Shown here piece by piece: positions 4,372 through 57,854 of a stretch of 64,000 nt of DNA. Origin of the DNA: an uncultured Bacilli bacterium (GTDB lineage Bacteria; Bacillota_I; Bacilli_A; RF39; UBA660). The stretch's first letter is position 1, and each line of letters begins with the position of its first letter. The notes under the pieces were generated by a model that saw only the letters and a program-made list of their open reading frames with translations, was not told the origin of the DNA and ran no database searches. The DNA is taken from the NCBI GenBank assembly GCA_944332475.1, contig CALVKA010000002.1, positions 391,147 through 455,146 on the forward strand. Reading direction: 5' to 3'. A program made the translations under genes and the position numbers.

Positions 4372-4821
4372 TTATAAATTGGATTTTCTCTTTCTCATTA
4401 GAAAGTCCAATCTAGAAGCTCTAGAAATCTGATTTTCTAATGTTCTATAAGAAATAGGAACAATAATTTCCTTATTATTATCAAAAATAACTTTTGTATT
4501 AATACTATCTACTTTTTCAAAAGACTTGACTCTTCTTAAAGAAATCCAAATACAATCTTCAGACCTTGGAGAAGTTGTTGGAAATACAATCAAATTATCA
4601 GTATCTTCAACAATAATAGGAACTTTATACTCTGCTCCTAAAATAGCTTTAGCACTATCCTTTCTTCCCTCATAAGTACTACCAAAATATTTACAGCTTT
4701 CCTCCATAATTTGAAATGGTGTTTGATGAATTAAAAAACGATCTTCATCCTCATACACCAAGCTTTCCATAGATTCATTAGGCATAATTGCTAATGTTCC
4801 CTTATTAATTTCATATTCCAT
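4372..4821 (-). CDS. comK: ComK-family competence transcription factor; start at second Met (MEYEIN...), which has RBS GAGGGGG
   Basis: Translation aligns by eye along its whole length with B. subtilis ComK: YEINKGTLAIMP, CKYFGSTYEGRK, LIVFPTTSPRSEDCIWISLRRVKSF, VPISYRTLENQISRASRL. The ORF track starts at 4842, but that ATG has no RBS. Confidence 0.7.
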   Translation of the reverse strand: MEYEINKGTLAIMPNESMESLVYEDEDRFLIHQTPFQIMEESCKYFGSTYEGRKDSAKAILGAEYKVPIIVEDTDNLIVFPTTSPRSEDCIWISLRRVKSFEKVDSINTKVIFDNNKEIIVPISYRTLENQISRASRLDFLMRKRKSNL

Positions 4822-4920
4822 AATATTCCCCCTCTCAAACATGAAATTGCAATTAGAATATCAACTAAATCTGTCTAATTTTGTCGAAAAAAATCATTTC
4901 ATATATATTATTCGAAAAAA

Positions 4921-6084: not shown

Positions 6085-6215
6085 TTATATTCCTTCTTTC
6101 TTTTTTATTTTTATTATTATTACTGTGGAAAAAGTGAAAAACTAAAATTTAACCAGTTTCTACAATGATTTTATCATATTTTTTATTGTGGAAAAAGAAA
6201 AGTTTCTCATCTTTT
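6085..6215. promoter_or_regulatory. oriC part 2: AT-rich DNA unwinding element plus DnaA-box-like sites in the dnaA-dnaN intergenic region
   Basis: TGTGGAAAA (6124-6132) and TGTGGAAAA (6188-6196) are reverse complements of TTTTCCACA. AGTGAAAAA is a weaker box. A 6100-6123 poly-AT tract ttttttatttttattattattac could be the unwinding element. Confidence 0.6.
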
Positions 6216-7625: not shown

Positions 7626-7860
7626 GTAAAATTATACCAATAGTTTAGCTCAAATTGTTTAAAAAAGAAATAGAAAAAGTAAAAAAAAAAGAAATCACAG
7701 CTTTTCCACAAAAGAAATCACAAGGAAATATGTGAAAAAATAACGAAAAAAAAGATATTTCCACATTTTCCACAAATTTTTGCCCACAGCAGTGCAAAAT
7801 ATAATTCACAGTGCTGTGGAAATTGTGGAAAGAAAAAAAGCAAGTAAAAAAAACAAATGA
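7626..7860. promoter_or_regulatory. oriC part 1: cluster of at least 6 DnaA-box-like 9-mers between dnaA and rpmH
   Basis: TTTTCCACA at 7701-7709 and 7764-7772. ATTTCCACA at 7755-7763. TGTGGAAAT and TGTGGAAAG at 7814-7832 on the opposite strand. TTGCCCACA at 7779-7787. All within 1-2 mismatches of TTATCCACA. Confidence 0.65.
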
Positions 7861-7892
7861 TTGACAAATTGCTCACTTTATTATTATAATAA
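7861..7892 (+). promoter_or_regulatory. Sigma-A promoter for rpmH-rnpA
   Basis: TTGACA (7861-7866), 18-nt spacer, then TATAAT. RBS GGAGGTGGAGAG precedes rpmH. Confidence 0.5.
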
Positions 7893-8093: not shown

Positions 8094-8429
8094 ATGAAAA
8101 AATTATATATAGTAAAACATAAGTATGATTTTGATAGAATTATAAAACAAGGAAAGAAAAAAAAGAATGATATCTTTATAATATATTCCGAAAACAACAA
8201 TTTAAAATATGCACGATATGGGATATCAGTAGGAAAAAAACTAGGAAATGCTGTATATAGAAATAAAAAGAAAAGGCAATTAAGATCCATAATAGATAAT
8301 TTAGAAAAAGACTATGTAAAAACGAAAGATTATATTATAATATTAAGAGAAAAGGGAAAACAGTTAGATTACCAAGAATTAAATAAAAAACTTAAGTCCC
8401 TTATAATTGAAAGAAAGGACCAAAGATGA
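8094..8429 (+). CDS. rnpA: Ribonuclease P protein component
   Basis: 111 aa basic protein with the RNR-like motif NAVYRNKKKRQLRSI. Position after rpmH fits. Confidence 0.85.
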   Translation: MKKLYIVKHKYDFDRIIKQGKKKKNDIFIIYSENNNLKYARYGISVGKKLGNAVYRNKKKRQLRSIIDNLEKDYVKTKDYIIILREKGKQLDYQELNKKLKSLIIERKDQR

Positions 8430-9355
8430 AGAAAAACAAATTGAAAATTCTCATTATTTTAATTCTACTATTAGTAACGACTGGTTGTACTACAACTCTA
8501 ACAGATGACGATAATAGAGCAGTAAGAAATGAGAATACAGGACAAAACTTAACAGAAAACATCATATGTCAACCAACAGATAAAGAAAATATAAAATTGT
8601 ATGAAGAAAATGGAGTAAAAGTGGATGAACTACCAACTTGCGAAGAGTTCACGCCAGCATCAGGAAAATATGAAGGTCTATGGACCAGTATATTTGTAAA
8701 GCCGCTATCTTTTATTTTATTATGGGCAGGTAGGTTAGTAGGTAATTATGCTATTTCATTAATAATTATTAGTATTATTATTAGATTGATAACTTTCCCA
8801 TTAACCAAAAAGACAGCCTTACAATCAGAAATGATGAAAAAAGCACAACCAGAATTAGAAAAAATCCAAAGAAAATATAAAGATAAACAAGACCAAGAAT
8901 CTATGATGAAACAAAGTCAAGAACTGATGATGGCATATAAAAAATATAATATAAGTCCTATGTCTGGATGTTTGTTTGCTATGTTACAATTTCCAATAGT
9001 AATTGCCTTTTTTGAAGCAATCCAAAGAACACCAGCCATATTTGAAGATAAGTTTTTGGGATTACAACTAGGAACTACACCATCAGTAGGAATTACTTCT
9101 GCTACATTTATTGCATATCTTATTCTAATGTTATTCATTGCAGGAACAACATTTTATTCTCTAAGAATGAACTTATCAAATTCAAATGTTGATCCTAGTA
9201 TGAAAATGATGCCAATCATGATGAGTGTAATAATCATTATTACAGCCTTATTCATGCCATCAGCATTAGGAATTTACTGGGTGACATCAAATTTATTAAC
9301 GATAATCCAGAATATAGTAGTAAAAAGGAGCAAAGAAGTACATGGAAAAGCATAA
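8426..9355 (+). CDS. yidC: Membrane protein insertase YidC/SpoIIIJ family (lipoprotein signal)
   Basis: Lipoprotein signal LLLVTTGC, multiple TM segments and a basic C-terminal tail. Overlaps the rnpA stop (coupling), as in rnpA-yidC-jag operons. Confidence 0.85.
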   Translation: MKKNKLKILIILILLLVTTGCTTTLTDDDNRAVRNENTGQNLTENIICQPTDKENIKLYEENGVKVDELPTCEEFTPASGKYEGLWTSIFVKPLSFILLWAGRLVGNYAISLIIISIIIRLITFPLTKKTALQSEMMKKAQPELEKIQRKYKDKQDQESMMKQSQELMMAYKKYNISPMSGCLFAMLQFPIVIAFFEAIQRTPAIFEDKFLGLQLGTTPSVGITSATFIAYLILMLFIAGTTFYSLRMNLSNSNVDPSMKMMPIMMSVIIIITALFMPSALGIYWVTSNLLTIIQNIVVKRSKEVHGKA

Positions 9356-45350: not shown

Positions 45351-46121
45351 ATGAAAAAAAACATTGTAATTGTAATTTTATTATTAGCAGTTATTGGATG
45401 TGCAGGGTATATTGGATATGATAAACTTTATTTAGAAAGACAAGACCAACAAGAAAATAAAGAAGAAACAAATCAACCAGAAGAAACACAAACAGAAGAG
45501 ATAAATACAGATAGTACATTTGTAGAAGATTTGGTAGGAAGATATGATTATTATTTTATCAGTGATACCAATCTAGAAAACATGTTGTACACAAACGATA
45601 CAACAACTCCAACAGAATTAACCGAAGACTTCATTAAACAAACAGCTACTTATGCCTACTATGCCATACCAAGAGGATTAAGTGGGACTTGGCAACAAAC
45701 CTATAATTTTACAAGTGATGACTTAAAAGAGCAAGTAAGAAAATTATATGGTCCAGAGGTAACAATCACAGATAGTAGTTTTGATATGGACTGCGGAACA
45801 TATGAATATAATGCAGAAAATAATACATACACAAGAAATGAAGGTAGTGGTTGTGGAGGAACCAATAGCACCTATCTAACTAGAGAAATTGTTTCTGCAA
45901 CCCAGGAAGAGAATCAAATCATGATAGAAGTTGCCGTGGCAAGAGTCGATGTAGGTAACAACATAATATTAAATATGAATGATGAAGCAATTGGGGAATT
46001 AACAGCAGAAAATTTTGACATCTCTACAGCTTTAGAACAAGTAGATCACTTTATTTACCAGTTTAATTATGATGAAGAAAATCATAACTATTATCTTGCT
46101 ACAATTTCTAAAGTAAACTAA
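45351..46121 (+). CDS. Putative lipoprotein, unknown function
   Basis: Signal peptide with lipobox VIGC; acidic Q/E/T-rich linker; no recognisable family. Confidence 0.5.
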   Translation: MKKNIVIVILLLAVIGCAGYIGYDKLYLERQDQQENKEETNQPEETQTEEINTDSTFVEDLVGRYDYYFISDTNLENMLYTNDTTTPTELTEDFIKQTATYAYYAIPRGLSGTWQQTYNFTSDDLKEQVRKLYGPEVTITDSSFDMDCGTYEYNAENNTYTRNEGSGCGGTNSTYLTREIVSATQEENQIMIEVAVARVDVGNNIILNMNDEAIGELTAENFDISTALEQVDHFIYQFNYDEENHNYYLATISKVN

Positions 46122-54824: not shown

Positions 54825-55556
54825 ATGCTGAACTTTATTATTTGTGAAGATGAACCAGAGCTATTAAAGGAATATAAAAATCAGATTGATAAATTTATGA
54901 TGAAGTATGATATTGAATATACGTGTTATACTTTTGATTGTTATAATGCAAAATGGAAGAAAGTAGCGAAAGAGATAAAAGGCTTTAAAATATTTTTATT
55001 AGATATTAGAACAGAAAAAGGTTCAGGTATAGATGCAGCTAGAATGATAAGAGAAGAATTTGATGATTGGGTATCTATGATAATTATGATATCAGGTTAT
55101 GCAGAGTATAAGTATGAAGCACTAGGAAAAAGATTGATGCTAGTAGATTTTATAAACAAGCTAGATCACTCTGAACAAAAACTACAAGATGCACTATTAA
55201 TTTGTATGAAACACTATGATAATAAATATAAATGTTTAAGATATACATATAAAAATGTAGCCTATAACATCGAGTTTAGAAGCATTATTAAAATAGAAAA
55301 AGAAATGGACAGTAAAAGATGTTTGATAACGACTGAAGAAGGAGAATATCCAATTCAAGGCACATTAAACGAAATATTAAAGAAATTAGATAAAAGATTC
55401 TTTAAATGTAATAGAGCAGTAGCAATTAATATTGAACAAGTACAAAGTTACAATTTTACAAAGAATGTAATAAAATTTAAAAACGGTGAAGAATTCAAAG
55501 AAACTTCAAGGAGTAAAAAGAGGGAGATGTTTAATCATGTTAGAGGTGTTTGTTAA
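54825..55556 (+). CDS. agrA: LytTR-family response regulator (AgrA-like)
   Basis: Receiver domain (ICEDEP...FLLDIRT...) plus a C-terminal LytTR DNA-binding domain (FFKCNRAVAINIEQV). RBS AAAGAGGAG. Confidence 0.8.
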   Translation: MLNFIICEDEPELLKEYKNQIDKFMMKYDIEYTCYTFDCYNAKWKKVAKEIKGFKIFLLDIRTEKGSGIDAARMIREEFDDWVSMIIMISGYAEYKYEALGKRLMLVDFINKLDHSEQKLQDALLICMKHYDNKYKCLRYTYKNVAYNIEFRSIIKIEKEMDSKRCLITTEEGEYPIQGTLNEILKKLDKRFFKCNRAVAINIEQVQSYNFTKNVIKFKNGEEFKETSRSKKREMFNHVRGVC

Positions 55557-56841
55557 TTTTATTAATTGCTTTTTAATGTCATTAGTCGGATTTTATATTA
55601 TAAAAATTTTAACGAAATCAGAAGTTAAAATATATGAATTTAAAGTTATTGGATGGTTATTATTAGATACAATCATTCCTACATATTTGCAAGCTAATAT
55701 TTATGTTGAAATAAAACCGCTGATAATATATTGTATAAATATATTAGCTTATAAACAAATATTCGATTTGCATATTGATGATGCGATTATAGTTGCTGGA
55801 ATAGCAATGTTGTTAAATTTGATAGGTGATATACTGATTTCTATTGTAATGAACATTTTATTTACAAACGATATAGAATTAATTAGTAACGTAGTAGCAA
55901 GTTTTCTAAAAAATACAATAGTTTCAGTTCTTGCATTATTATTAATAAATATTAAAAAAATAAAAGAAAAATTATGTGATTTCTATAATAATATAAAAAA
56001 CAAGAAGAAAGTATCAACTGTTGTGTTTTTTTCACTAACAATTATTATCTTCTGTATTCTTGGGTTCCACATATATGTATCGTCACATTTTGATATTTCT
56101 TATTTAACAGCAATACTAACAATAGCAATATTATGGACATTAATAATTATTTTTATAAATAGTAGGAATAAATATAATTATTTGATAAAAGAATATGATA
56201 CATTATTTTCATACGTTCAAAACTTTGAAGATTGGATAGAGCAAGAACAATTAAACCGACATGAGTATAAGAATCAATTAGCTGTACTACGCTGTCTTAC
56301 GAAAGAAAAGAAGGTGAAGGATAAAATTGATGAGATATTGGAAGACAATATCAACATTGAAGGTCAAGCAGTCACCAACCTAAAGAACCTTCCTAAAGGT
56401 GGAATTAGAGGTTTAATGTATTATAAGGCAGCCATTGCTCAAAAACATAAAATAAATTTGACAACAGATGTCAGTATAGAAGCAAAAGGTATTTTATCAA
56501 AATTATCAGAAAAAGATATAAGAATTCTTTGTAAGTTAATTGGAATTTATTTTGATAATGCAATTGAAGCTGCAGCTGAAAGTAGAAAAAAGAATTTAAC
56601 AATCGAAATATATGAACTAAAAGATAAAGTGAGTTTTGTCTTTTCTAACACATTTAAACGTCATAAAAATATGAAAGATAGAAATAAAAAAGGAGTTTCA
56701 TCTAAAGGAGAAGGTAGAGGGAATGGATTATATTTTGCTTCTAAATTAATAAAAGACAATCCATGGCTAGAAGAAAAGCAAGAAATTATTGATGGTTATT
56801 ATATTGAACAATTGACAATAAAAAAGAATATCAATAAATGA
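55537..56841 (+). CDS. agrC: AgrC-like GHKL sensor histidine kinase (HPK10 family)
   Basis: Six to seven N-terminal TM helices. H-box RHEYKNQL (cf. AgrC HDYKNH). N-box and G2 box KGEGRGNGLYFASKL. ATG 55537 with RBS AAGAGGGAG overlaps the regulator's 3' end. Confidence 0.8.
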   Translation: MLEVFVNFINCFLMSLVGFYIIKILTKSEVKIYEFKVIGWLLLDTIIPTYLQANIYVEIKPLIIYCINILAYKQIFDLHIDDAIIVAGIAMLLNLIGDILISIVMNILFTNDIELISNVVASFLKNTIVSVLALLLINIKKIKEKLCDFYNNIKNKKKVSTVVFFSLTIIIFCILGFHIYVSSHFDISYLTAILTIAILWTLIIIFINSRNKYNYLIKEYDTLFSYVQNFEDWIEQEQLNRHEYKNQLAVLRCLTKEKKVKDKIDEILEDNINIEGQAVTNLKNLPKGGIRGLMYYKAAIAQKHKINLTTDVSIEAKGILSKLSEKDIRILCKLIGIYFDNAIEAAAESRKKNLTIEIYELKDKVSFVFSNTFKRHKNMKDRNKKGVSSKGEGRGNGLYFASKLIKDNPWLEEKQEIIDGYYIEQLTIKKNINK

Positions 56842-56850
56842 TATTCTTTT

Positions 56851-56973
56851 TTAATCTTGAAATACATCAATTGAATCTGGTTCATCATTAAACCACCATG
56901 CACACCCTAAACTTGCTGCCCCTGTTGCCAACATGGCTACTGCAGCCAATAACATAGATAATCTTTTTTTCAT
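56851..56973 (-). CDS. agrD: AgrD-like autoinducing-peptide precursor (40 aa), not in the ORF track
   Basis: Codon-by-codon translation gives MKKRLSMLLAAVAMLATGAASLGCAWWFNDEPDSIDVFQD. It has an amphipathic/hydrophobic leader, a Cys plus four hydrophobic residues (CAWWF, cf. C. perfringens CLWFT and S. aureus CDFIM), then an acidic proline-containing tail. RBS AAAGGAG lies 8 nt upstream. The gene sits immediately downstream of agrB. Confidence 0.6.
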   Translation of the reverse strand: MKKRLSMLLAAVAMLATGAASLGCAWWFNDEPDSIDVFQD

Positions 56974-57005
56974 ACTACGCTCCTTTACCAAAAATATATT
57001 AAATA

Positions 57006-57608
57006 CTATTTTGTAGTATTTAACCTTTTATAATTGTTATATGGTTGCCCAAATAACGTATAAGTAAGTGGACTAACAATAATTGCCTGAACAATTAATG
57101 CTGACAAAATAATCGCCGTCCAATATTCTTGATGTAATAGTACAATTGTTAATGTATAGATAAAACCAATCGTAACCGTAAGAATTTTACGAATGATTCT
57201 CTTTCTTTTGTTTGAAAGAGGTCTTTTTTTTGTATCTGCAGGTGCAAATAGTAAATAATGGGTAATACAAATTGCACAGATGACATATACAATAAAATTA
57301 GGTAGGTGTATATGTAACAATAAATATGGTATTGCAATAAAATTAAAAATTGAAAAGATCAAACATTGATAACTTTTCTCTGCATGAAAGCCAAATCCCG
57401 TATATCGAATAATATTAAATAAAATTGTTACAATAACGAATTCAAATAACATATTCAAAATAATTGCTAGAATGAGTAGTATAACCAACTTTGTTATGGT
57501 AAGGTATATTCCCTCTAAGCCATAATTTAATTTTTTCTTGTCGTAGTCAGAAAAGGATTGGTATTTACAGATAAGGTCCATGCAACGATTTAAAAATAAT
57601 TGTTTCAT
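57006..57608 (-). CDS. agrB: AgrB-family pro-peptide processing membrane endopeptidase
   Basis: Conserved catalytic His/Cys region (RYTGFGFHAEKSYQC, cf. RRHAHGAHAPSSFWC) and the APADTKKRP loop (cf. APAATKKKP). Four to five TM helices. First ATG at 57608; the track start 57632 is a TTG. Confidence 0.8.
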   Translation of the reverse strand: MKQLFLNRCMDLICKYQSFSDYDKKKLNYGLEGIYLTITKLVILLILAIILNMLFEFVIVTILFNIIRYTGFGFHAEKSYQCLIFSIFNFIAIPYLLLHIHLPNFIVYVICAICITHYLLFAPADTKKRPLSNKRKRIIRKILTVTIGFIYTLTIVLLHQEYWTAIILSALIVQAIIVSPLTYTLFGQPYNNYKRLNTTK

Positions 57609-57690
57609 ATACAACCACCAAACCTCAATCAATCTTATTATATAACTATAATAAGATTAAAAACAAAAAAATCAATCAAATAATTAATTG

Positions 57691-57780
57691 AAAATAAATT
57701 TTGTCGAATTTTGTCGAAAAAAGAAGAATACAAACCATCAAAGTAACTACCAATAGCAATTAACGGAATTTTTGTCGTTG
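57691..57780. promoter_or_regulatory. agrBD upstream region with tandem 10-bp repeat TTTTGTCGAA x2 plus a third TTTTTGTCG copy
   Basis: 57699-57708 and 57709-57718 are identical. 57769-57777 is a degenerate copy. An A4-N5-T4 AT-box (aaaataaatttt) lies at 57691-57702. The same TTTTGTCGAAAAAA string occurs at 4879-4892 upstream of the comK-like gene. Confidence 0.4.
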
Positions 57781-57854
57781 GGTTGGCAAAAATTGGTATG
57801 ATGTAATCACCAAGGAGATAAACGATGCTGTTGGTAGAAATGAGGTGCAAGAAC

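Follow-up and report, generated by a model that had tools for sequence, protein, structure and literature searches.

The 64-kb stretch of DNA analysed here (the window), which belongs to a contig of an uncultured Bacilli bacterium, carries on its minus strand a 40-codon open reading frame (ORF) that, judged by its sequence and its genomic setting, genuinely encodes the precursor of a cyclic quorum-sensing peptide of the agr type and is referred to as agrD in the following. We consider it fairly probable that this ORF represents agrD in a complete locus of the agr type, in which an agrA-agrC operon converges on agrD and agrB, and that its product is matured and sensed by the mechanism proposed below. 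The original prediction had described the ORF as the precursor of an AgrD-type autoinducer, and this assignment is borne out by an agrB gene directly upstream, by adjoining AgrA- and AgrC-like genes, by a conserved precursor layout, and by a core that co-varies with the sensor domain of the receptor.

Translation of the minus strand from 56973 to 56851 gives MKKRLSMLLAAVAMLATGAASLGCAWWFNDEPDSIDVFQD followed by a TAA stop, which agrees exactly in coordinates and peptide with the 40-residue ORF that had been predicted at 56851-56973, for which the strand had been left unstated; the plus-strand translation of the same segment contains many stop codons. As had been claimed, a six-frame track overlooked the ORF because its length is below the 60-residue limit of that track. 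The description of the gene as unannotated holds only under this cut-off, as public gene callers have already called it: the identical 40-residue peptide is a called gene on 49 contigs from NCBI, ENA and Logan, although it is named in none of them. A ribosome binding site precedes the ATG (see the table), and the conservation among homologs starts at the methionine encoded by this ATG and not at an in-frame TTG farther upstream. The window contains no other AgrD-like ORF.

The agrB gene lies upstream of agrD on the same strand, separated from it by a gap of 32 nt. Residues H75 and C82 of AgrB (H-x6-C) and the segment P123-A-D-T-x-K-R-P130 are conserved to at least 95% in 45 homologs, and we take them to be the equivalents of H77/C84 and of the PAATKKKP motif in S. 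aureus AgrB. The score of AgrB against the NCBIfam equivalog PRK01100 is 108.9 at a cutoff of 282, so that the protein is to be regarded as a distant member, and a search of PDB sequences with AgrB returned no homolog of solved structure, which leaves the cleavage geometry without a structural handle. An alternative start at an in-frame TTG at 57632 would extend AgrB to 208 residues; public gene callers take the 200-residue form. On the plus strand, the end of agrA overlaps the start of agrC by 20 nt, from which the operon order agrA then agrC is deduced, and this pair converges on agrB-agrD. The response regulator domain of AgrA scores slightly below the Pfam gathering score (Response_reg, E = 2.3e-6, 28.2 bits against 30.2 bits), and AgrA gives a weak match to the staphylococcal equivalog NF046049 (E = 9.5e-13, far below the model cutoff). 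AgrC has about 6-7 hydrophobic segments in residues 1-207, which make up a polytopic N-terminal sensor, an H-box RHEYKN at H242 and a GHKL ATPase domain, and it matches staphylococcal AgrC weakly over the whole length (NF046015, E = 2.3e-13, far below cutoff). By these sequence features AgrC is a polytopic HPK10-type kinase, and agrA and agrC together have the make-up of an agr two-component module.

The layout that had been claimed for the peptide, with a leader, a cysteine, a core and an acidic follower containing proline, is kept in all 38 related loci, in which the core is variable and the follower motif is E-P. In each of these AgrB-related loci, which come from species-representative genomes, an AgrD-like ORF lies directly 3' of agrB, one of them being cut by a contig end. 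The ORF is clearly not due to chance, as a word search found about 47 homologs of the peptide. When 1.84 billion representative proteins were searched with a profile, just 44 clusters at 50% identity were returned, which indicates a narrow family; its distant members, as found by the profile search, continue with DEPK[MA]PKS[LM], as do canonical AgrD followers. Among 77 non-identical anchored precursors, Cys24 is invariant (0 bits of entropy), the leader residues A13, T17, A20 and G23 are nearly so (near 0 bits), and the follower opens with a near-invariant D/E at position 30 (0.83 bits) and with the invariant E31 and P32 (0 bits each). The core positions between them vary strongly, with 3.09 bits at position 25, 1.24 bits at position 26 (mostly Trp), 2.44 bits at position 27, 2.67 bits at position 28, and 3.18 bits at position 29, where 14 residue types occur; this is the most variable position within the core and is exceeded only by follower position 35 (3.46 bits). 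Altogether 68 distinct six-residue cores were seen. A codon comparison of 40 distinct agrD nucleotide sequences, with the window as reference, found 14 synonymous and no nonsynonymous differences at Cys24, 30 synonymous and four nonsynonymous differences at D-E-P (30-32), and one synonymous and 136 nonsynonymous differences at core positions 25-29. This split by region shows the reading frame to be genuine and the core to evolve under diversifying selection.

The C-x5 spacing is uniform in the 77 precursors and in two family searches, with the exception of P0060 and P0064, which have no core, and of P0080. In the last of these, a match from the profile search, a threonine replaces the ring cysteine (...AASTGTVFWLLDEPK...), which may point to a variant that forms a lactone, to an allele that is dead or to an error of sequencing. 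One clade of the related loci (L020, L022-L024, L026, L031, L044) has a conserved second cysteine near the C-terminus of the follower (...KAMKSLCD), and a second cysteine is also found inside some cores (CSWWVC, CWWCLV).

The core varies together with the receptor. Two alleles of one species, L045 with the core CVWWFQ and L051/L052 with the core CPWLSV, have flanks with 96-99% nucleotide identity, agrA with 99% and agrB with 97%; in their agrC genes the kinase halves are 88% identical, and the sensor halves show 69% nucleotide identity over 42% of their length, which corresponds to 40% amino-acid identity. Within a clade with 92-97% identity between kinase halves, the sensors share 85-94% identity where the core is the same (CIWIVV) and 48-64% where the cores differ. 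The xWWF[N/Q/H/Y] group, to which the window belongs, has sensors that are 56-62% identical to each other, as opposed to 33-40% where the cores are unrelated and the kinases are of similar identity. The relation between core and sensor is thus graded and includes alleles within one species, and this pattern in the sequences would hardly be expected if the variable core were not the ligand of the neighbouring AgrC. It is the same pattern that published work describes for the staphylococcal agr specificity groups, where a hypervariable AgrD core goes together with the AgrC sensor in allelic groups within species.

A further comparison concerns L007, whose CspA and HPF are 100% identical to those of the window at the amino-acid level, whereas the N-terminal half of AgrC is 31% and the kinase half 84% identical. 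Between L007 1-7653 and the window, the nucleotide identity is 99-100% from secA to the start of agrB (~57640), then drops sharply to ~82%, falls to 45-57% across the sensor-coding part, and is ~85% on the far flank. With a left flank that is only ~85% identical, L007 could not be retained as an allele of the same species, and its nucleotide identity profile identifies it as another species whose right flank, 99-100% identical, has been recombined (or mis-assembled). The breakpoint at the start of agrB, at the edge of the agr cassette, is either due to recombination or due to a chimeric metagenomic contig.

Several observations weigh against the assignment as an AgrD. The NCBIfam model for AgrD, TIGR04223, matches the window peptide with 14.6 bits (E = 0.027), which is below its 19-bit cutoff, in an alignment that spans peptide residues 3-32 and model positions 1-30 of 38. 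Of 49 family members, no more than 23 match this model at E <= 10, the best with E = 5.8e-4, and the source organism is known from metagenomes only. As the peptide has only 40 residues and is hypervariable, we read the low TIGR04223 score as a limit of sensitivity and not as counter-evidence; a Pfam scan of the peptide likewise gave only noise matches (UxaC and the ArcB transmembrane model). To be counted among the adverse points is also that the leader, with KKR in the n-region, a hydrophobic h-region and ASLG/C (the slash marks the cut), fits a permissive PROSITE-type lipobox. The original prediction had itself raised the alternative of a conventional lipoprotein or signal peptide cleaved at Cys24. 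Under this alternative, the ORF would encode a mini-lipoprotein or secreted peptide, the Sec or lipoprotein signal of which would be cut before a lipid-modified Cys24, and which would be unrelated to AgrB. Two likely lipoproteins of the window have similar boxes, VTTG/C and AVIG/C, and models of mollicute lipoproteins are matched very weakly by some members of the family (best E = 0.85 and 0.21). However, the mature part would be just 17 residues long, and position -3 is serine, whereas the -3 residue of a strict lipobox is usually Leu, Val or Ile. A lipoprotein would also leave unexplained why the ORF is placed next to agrB in 38 of 38 loci, why it has an invariant DEP in an AgrD-type follower, why exactly five residues after the cysteine diversify, and why they co-vary with the AgrC sensor. 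Given this locus context the lipoprotein alternative is strongly disfavoured, and we consider it very improbable. The two lipoprotein-type ORFs, at 8426-9355 (+) and 45351-46121 (+), have clear lipoprotein-type signal peptides (...VTTG/C and ...AVIG/C) and suggest that the organism possesses a lipoprotein pathway despite its reduced genome.

It is for the size of the ring in the autoinducing peptide (AIP) that the original prediction probably needs to be revised. A five-residue ring, CAWWF, had been proposed, which fits neither the C-x5 spacing to D/E-E-P nor the hypervariable block, which runs five residues past the cysteine. From the sequence comparison we prefer the six-residue C-A-W-W-F-N as the predicted signal, because the ring abuts the follower motif in characterised AgrDs, because the C-x5 spacing is that of C. 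acetobutylicum, because the family aligns with six-ring AgrDs in a gapless register, and because the boundary between hypervariable and conserved residues in the 77 precursors falls between positions 29 and 30. The follower of S. aureus AgrD-I is DEVEVPKELTQLHE, so that the cut falls directly before D-E, and the Listeria AgrD precursor continues with YEP after CFMFV. In published work, S. aureus AgrB frees a follower of 14 residues, and the Listeria AIP is the tail-less CFMFV. The AgrD of C. acetobutylicum has been reported to read ...GKCVLVTL before and YEPKMPEEL after the cut, that is C-x5-YEP, and its AIP to be a six-membered macrocycle with no tail, which was shown first with the synthetic peptide R6T0 and later confirmed by mass spectrometry; Rc-AIP1 of Ruminiclostridium cellulolyticum is the six-residue CWFWSY. 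An hhalign comparison of the family with eight known six-ring precursors places Cys on Cys and DEP on YEP without a gap.

This preference is opposed by a number of points, some of which also speak for a cut by the same AgrB after Phe28, yielding the five-residue thiolactone C-A-W-W-F with Asn29 as the first discarded residue of the follower. The hhalign match is non-significant (E = 0.033, probability 1.5%), as 16 columns are too few, so that only its register carries information. By far the most known AIPs have rings of five residues, among them all those of staphylococci, Listeria and C. perfringens (e.g. Listeria CFMFV). In the window, Phe28 is hydrophobic, as is typical of residues that close the ring, and Asn29 is polar, whereas most family members have a hydrophobic residue at position 29. 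A cut after Phe28 would also place the acidic D30 at +2, which according to Thoendel and Horswill (2009) is reportedly the position of an essential Glu in S. aureus AgrD. A Q-to-H change at position 29 is found without any receptor change (CVWWFQ in L045, CVWWFH in L047), and this pair, the sensors being identical, is silent on ring size; for CVWWFQ and CVWWFY the sensors are 61% identical, a value that is confounded by species divergence. Against the five-residue ring, position 29 is hypervariable, yet the +1 residue after the ring is conserved (Y) in characterised AgrD families; the conserved block begins only at position 30; the C-x5-[D/Y]EP spacing is that of the proven six-ring AgrD of C. 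acetobutylicum; and in 68 of the 77 members position 29 is taken by a small or hydrophobic residue (I, V, F, L, M, A, G or W), which fits ring closure. We therefore regard the five-residue ring as rather unlikely, albeit as the most serious of the alternatives.

With the six-residue ring, maturation would proceed as follows. AgrD would insert in the membrane by its signal-peptide-like leader, and AgrB, with the catalytic residues H75 and C82, would cut between Asn29 and Asp30 and thereby remove the follower DEPDSIDVFQD. The carbonyl of Asn29 would be passed to the thiol of Cys24, resulting in the six-residue thiolactone C-A-W-W-F-N. The leader would then be removed, most likely directly after Gly23, as the residues at -3 (Ser21) and -1 (Gly23) are conserved and the residue at -2 is variable, which fits the -3/-1 rule of signal peptidase I. 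All clostridial AIPs examined so far are tail-less and are lactams, that is homodetic cyclopeptides, into which they rearrange by an S-to-N acyl shift because the lack of a tail leaves a free alpha-amine. By analogy, the AIP of the window is probably tail-less and rearranged to the lactam, in which case the tail-less thiolactone would undergo the shift spontaneously and be a transient intermediate on the way to a homodetic cyclo-hexapeptide (M = 807.316). The product named in the original prediction is thus probably short by one residue, and a thiolactone, which is the predicted product of AgrB, may not be its lasting form.

Whether a tail is present depends on the site of leader cleavage. If the leader were cut earlier, after Ser21 or Ala20, the six-residue ring would bear an LG or SLG tail (LG-/SLG-CAWWFN) and would be a stable thiolactone as in staphylococci, the AIPs of which bear tails. 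The sequence A19-A20-S21 likewise meets the small-residue -3/-1 rule, and position 22 varies moderately and conservatively (L, M, V, I; 2.06 bits), as would be expected for a tail residue that contributes to specificity. On the other hand, every clostridial AIP detected so far is tail-less, as is that of Listeria, and G23 is essentially invariant and S21 nearly so, which fits a recognition for a cut before Cys24. The tailed form thus appears unlikely to us, somewhat more so than the five-residue ring. The predicted [M+H]+ values are 808.3235 for cyclo-CAWWFN, 694.2806 for cyclo-CAWWF, and 865.3450, 978.4291 and 1065.4611 for the six-membered ring with a G, LG and SLG tail, respectively; the same calculation reproduces the published 873.3389 for CWFWSY.

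The tail-less cyclo-hexapeptide would be detected by the polytopic sensor domain of AgrC, which would phosphorylate the LytTR regulator AgrA. Transcription of agrBD would start from a promoter beside the tandem repeat TTCGACA-N3-TTCGACA, a putative operator, and would end at a hairpin that is common with the convergent agrAC. This hairpin is a perfect inverted repeat that spans both stop codons and has T-runs on both sides (RNA fold of -17.7 kcal/mol, z = -5.2, with none of 200 shuffles as stable). Because of this stability and of the T-runs, it is likely a bidirectional intrinsic terminator shared by both operons. When the whole window was scanned against Rfam, the agr locus gave no match, neither to an RNAIII-like nor to another known RNA; the sole match above threshold in the window is an L31-Firmicutes ribosomal-protein leader (RF03156, 49107-49138 (+), 38.5 bits).

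The exact tandem repeat lies upstream of agrB in 31 of 52 loci, amid diverging intergenic sequence. The window contains two matches to it, at 0.21 expected, and the second precedes comK as TTCGACAAAATTAGACA, a direct repeat in 10-bp phase as upstream of agrB. Nearly all of 56 metagenomic ComK loci (L053-L110; 62-92% identity) have, as inspected by eye, 2-3 units in 10-bp phase, situated just upstream of an apparent extended -10 element. Upstream of agrA the repeat is absent. An obvious candidate for binding the repeat is AgrA, since direct repeats are the usual targets of LytTR regulators and agr systems are autoinducing, and ComK or another regulator are further candidates; it counts against AgrA that LytTR sites are usually about 21 bp apart from centre to centre, so that the 10-bp phasing is atypical and more OmpR/PhoB-like. 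Three other readings of the repeat were set aside. DnaA boxes are ruled out, since the genome's own origin boxes are TTTTCCACA clusters around dnaA; in a hand alignment to the CodY box AATTTTCWGAAAATT just ~9-10 of 15 positions match; and the pattern of the ComK K-box (A4-N5-T4) is absent by inspection. It is conceivable, if doubtful, that TTCGACA-N3-TTCGACA is an AgrA site at both the agrBD and the comK promoters across the lineage, and that agr pherotypes thereby gate ComK-dependent natural competence, with which the sharp recombination breakpoint at agrB would be consistent. If this were true, the agr pherotypes, with at least 68 cores, would constitute "mating groups" like the pneumococcal pherotypes in genome-reduced RF39 gut bacteria. 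Separate from the repeat, a second conserved block, approximately TTCC[GT]TTAA[TC]TG on the agrB strand, occurs between cspA and agrB at ~57755-57790 in most related loci; it may belong to the promoter or the 5' untranslated region of the divergent cspA.

Table. Features of the agr locus and of the comK region in the window (positions in the 64-kb stretch).
Feature	Position	Strand	Remarks
agrD	56851..56973	minus	40 codons + TAA stop; leader 1-23, core 24-29, follower 30-40
Predicted core C24-A-W-W-F-N29	56887..56904	minus	from entropy profile and gapless register with six-ring AgrDs
D30-E31-P32	56878..56886	minus	conserved follower start; predicted AgrB cut directly before D30
Ribosome binding site AAAGGAG	56980..56986	minus	6 nt 5' of agrD ATG; read directly from the sequence
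agrB	57006..57608	minus	200-residue membrane cysteine endopeptidase/cyclase; Pfam PF04647, E = 6.1e-31, 107.6 bits (cutoff 23)
agrA	54825..55556	plus	243-residue response regulator with LytTR DNA-binding domain; LytTR E = 8.1e-14, above Pfam cutoff
agrC	55537..56841	plus	434-residue sensor histidine kinase; HATPase_c_5 E = 7.5e-7, above Pfam cutoff
Perfect inverted repeat, 15 bp, 5-nt loop	56819..56853	both	arms 56819-56833 / 56839-56853; spans agrC and agrD stop codons
Tandem direct repeat TTCGACA-N3-TTCGACA	57702..57718	minus	~95 nt upstream of agrB ATG; candidate agrBD operator (repeat search)
Second TTCGACA-N3-TTCGACA	4872-4888	minus	~50 nt upstream of comK
comK	4372-4821	minus	Pfam E = 4e-47; between dnaN and recF

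The host is an uncultured, reduced-genome RF39 gut bacterium close to the genus CAG-877 ("Candidatus Faecimonas"). All relatives are metagenome-assembled genomes that are labelled uncultured Bacilli, Tenericutes or Mycoplasmatota, and the SecA of Candidatus Faecimonas intestinavium (GTDB genus CAG-877, family CAG-611, order RF39; ~28% GC, 1.4-Mb genome) shares 96% amino-acid identity with that of the window, which has a GC content of 29.7%. Across the clade, every related contig has the same gene order, with mreB, GT4, agrA and agrC followed by agrD and agrB on the opposite strand and then by cspA, hpf and secA. The window begins at the replication origin with gyrA (partial), gyrB, recF, comK, dnaN and dnaA, and clusters of TTTTCCACA-type DnaA boxes at 6085-6215 and 7626-7870, which flank dnaA, mark this origin. 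In L003, which has the same AgrD as the window, agrB, agrC and secA are all fragmented, most likely due to indel errors of the assembly rather than to a pseudogenisation of agr.

Systems of the agr type, AgrD precursors, six-membered AIPs and specificity groups are all already known, and a large-scale mining of human-microbiome genomes for AIPs has been published. In a literature search, the scope of which did not include the supplementary tables of this survey, no paper was found that joins agr or AgrD with RF39, nor one that contains the peptide string of the window. The locus is an ordinary type of system in a little-known lineage, with a natural diversity of alleles that is unusually rich. 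Members of RF39 are common in the guts of humans and animals, have never been grown in pure culture, and have small, dependent genomes, so that a complete and fast-diversifying peptide quorum-sensing system offers a concrete way into their biology that is also chemically simple. One could synthesise the predicted hexapeptide, search for it by its mass, and use it on enrichment cultures or as a "synthetic-bioinformatic" probe, as such probes have recently been made for other gut autoinducing peptides. The ring size matters in this respect, as a standard made as the five-residue CAWWF would have the wrong mass (694.28 instead of 808.32) and probably the wrong activity if the six-membered ring is true. 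Apart from this, the 68 or more core variants, each paired with a receptor sensor, are a data set for ligand-receptor specificity of six-membered AIPs, and the operator common to agrB and comK may hint at a cell-density control of DNA uptake in this lineage.

Compared with S. aureus and coagulase-negative staphylococci, the locus has the same four components, with the H-x6-C dyad in AgrB, an HPK10-type AgrC with a polytopic sensor and a LytTR-type AgrA, and it shares with them the cassette of hypervariable AgrD core and AgrC sensor with allelic groups within species. The follower starts with D-E-P also in S. aureus AgrD-II and in most coagulase-negative staphylococci. Unlike in S. aureus, the ring is predicted to comprise six instead of five residues, agrA-agrC is convergent with agrB-agrD instead of being part of a single agrBDCA operon, and the divergent neighbour is cspA and not RNAIII. 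A motif search within the window, moreover, found no gene for an MroQ-like CPBP protease, and AgrB does not noticeably diverge between alleles beyond the genomic background (97% nucleotide identity within species).

The six-membered systems of C. acetobutylicum and other clostridia resemble the locus in the spacing Cys-x5-[acidic/aromatic]-E-P, in their separate agrBD and agrCA operons, and in their tail-less products with an S-to-N acyl shift, as is predicted for the window. The Trp/Phe-rich, hydrophobic core of six residues is like that of Rc-AIP1 (CWFWSY). In contrast to the clostridial six-ring precursors, the window leader is hydrophobic and signal-peptide-like (MKKRLSMLLAAVAMLATGAAS-x-G), whereas theirs is amphipathic and of the GIGKASMKIGEQ type; the follower starts with D/E and not with Y; the operons are convergent with a common terminator, with no LanM-like gene after the locus; and the host belongs to RF39, which GTDB places in the Bacilli, and not to the Clostridia. 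The C. perfringens (AIP CLWFT) and L. monocytogenes (CFMFV) systems also have Trp/Phe-rich cores and tail-less AIPs, as predicted here, but they form five-residue rings, whereas the window family is uniformly C-x5. Their AgrD precursors read C-x4-[H/Y]-[Q/E]-P, and the leader of C. perfringens AgrD is, as in the window, signal-peptide-like and hydrophobic, with small residues just before the cysteine.

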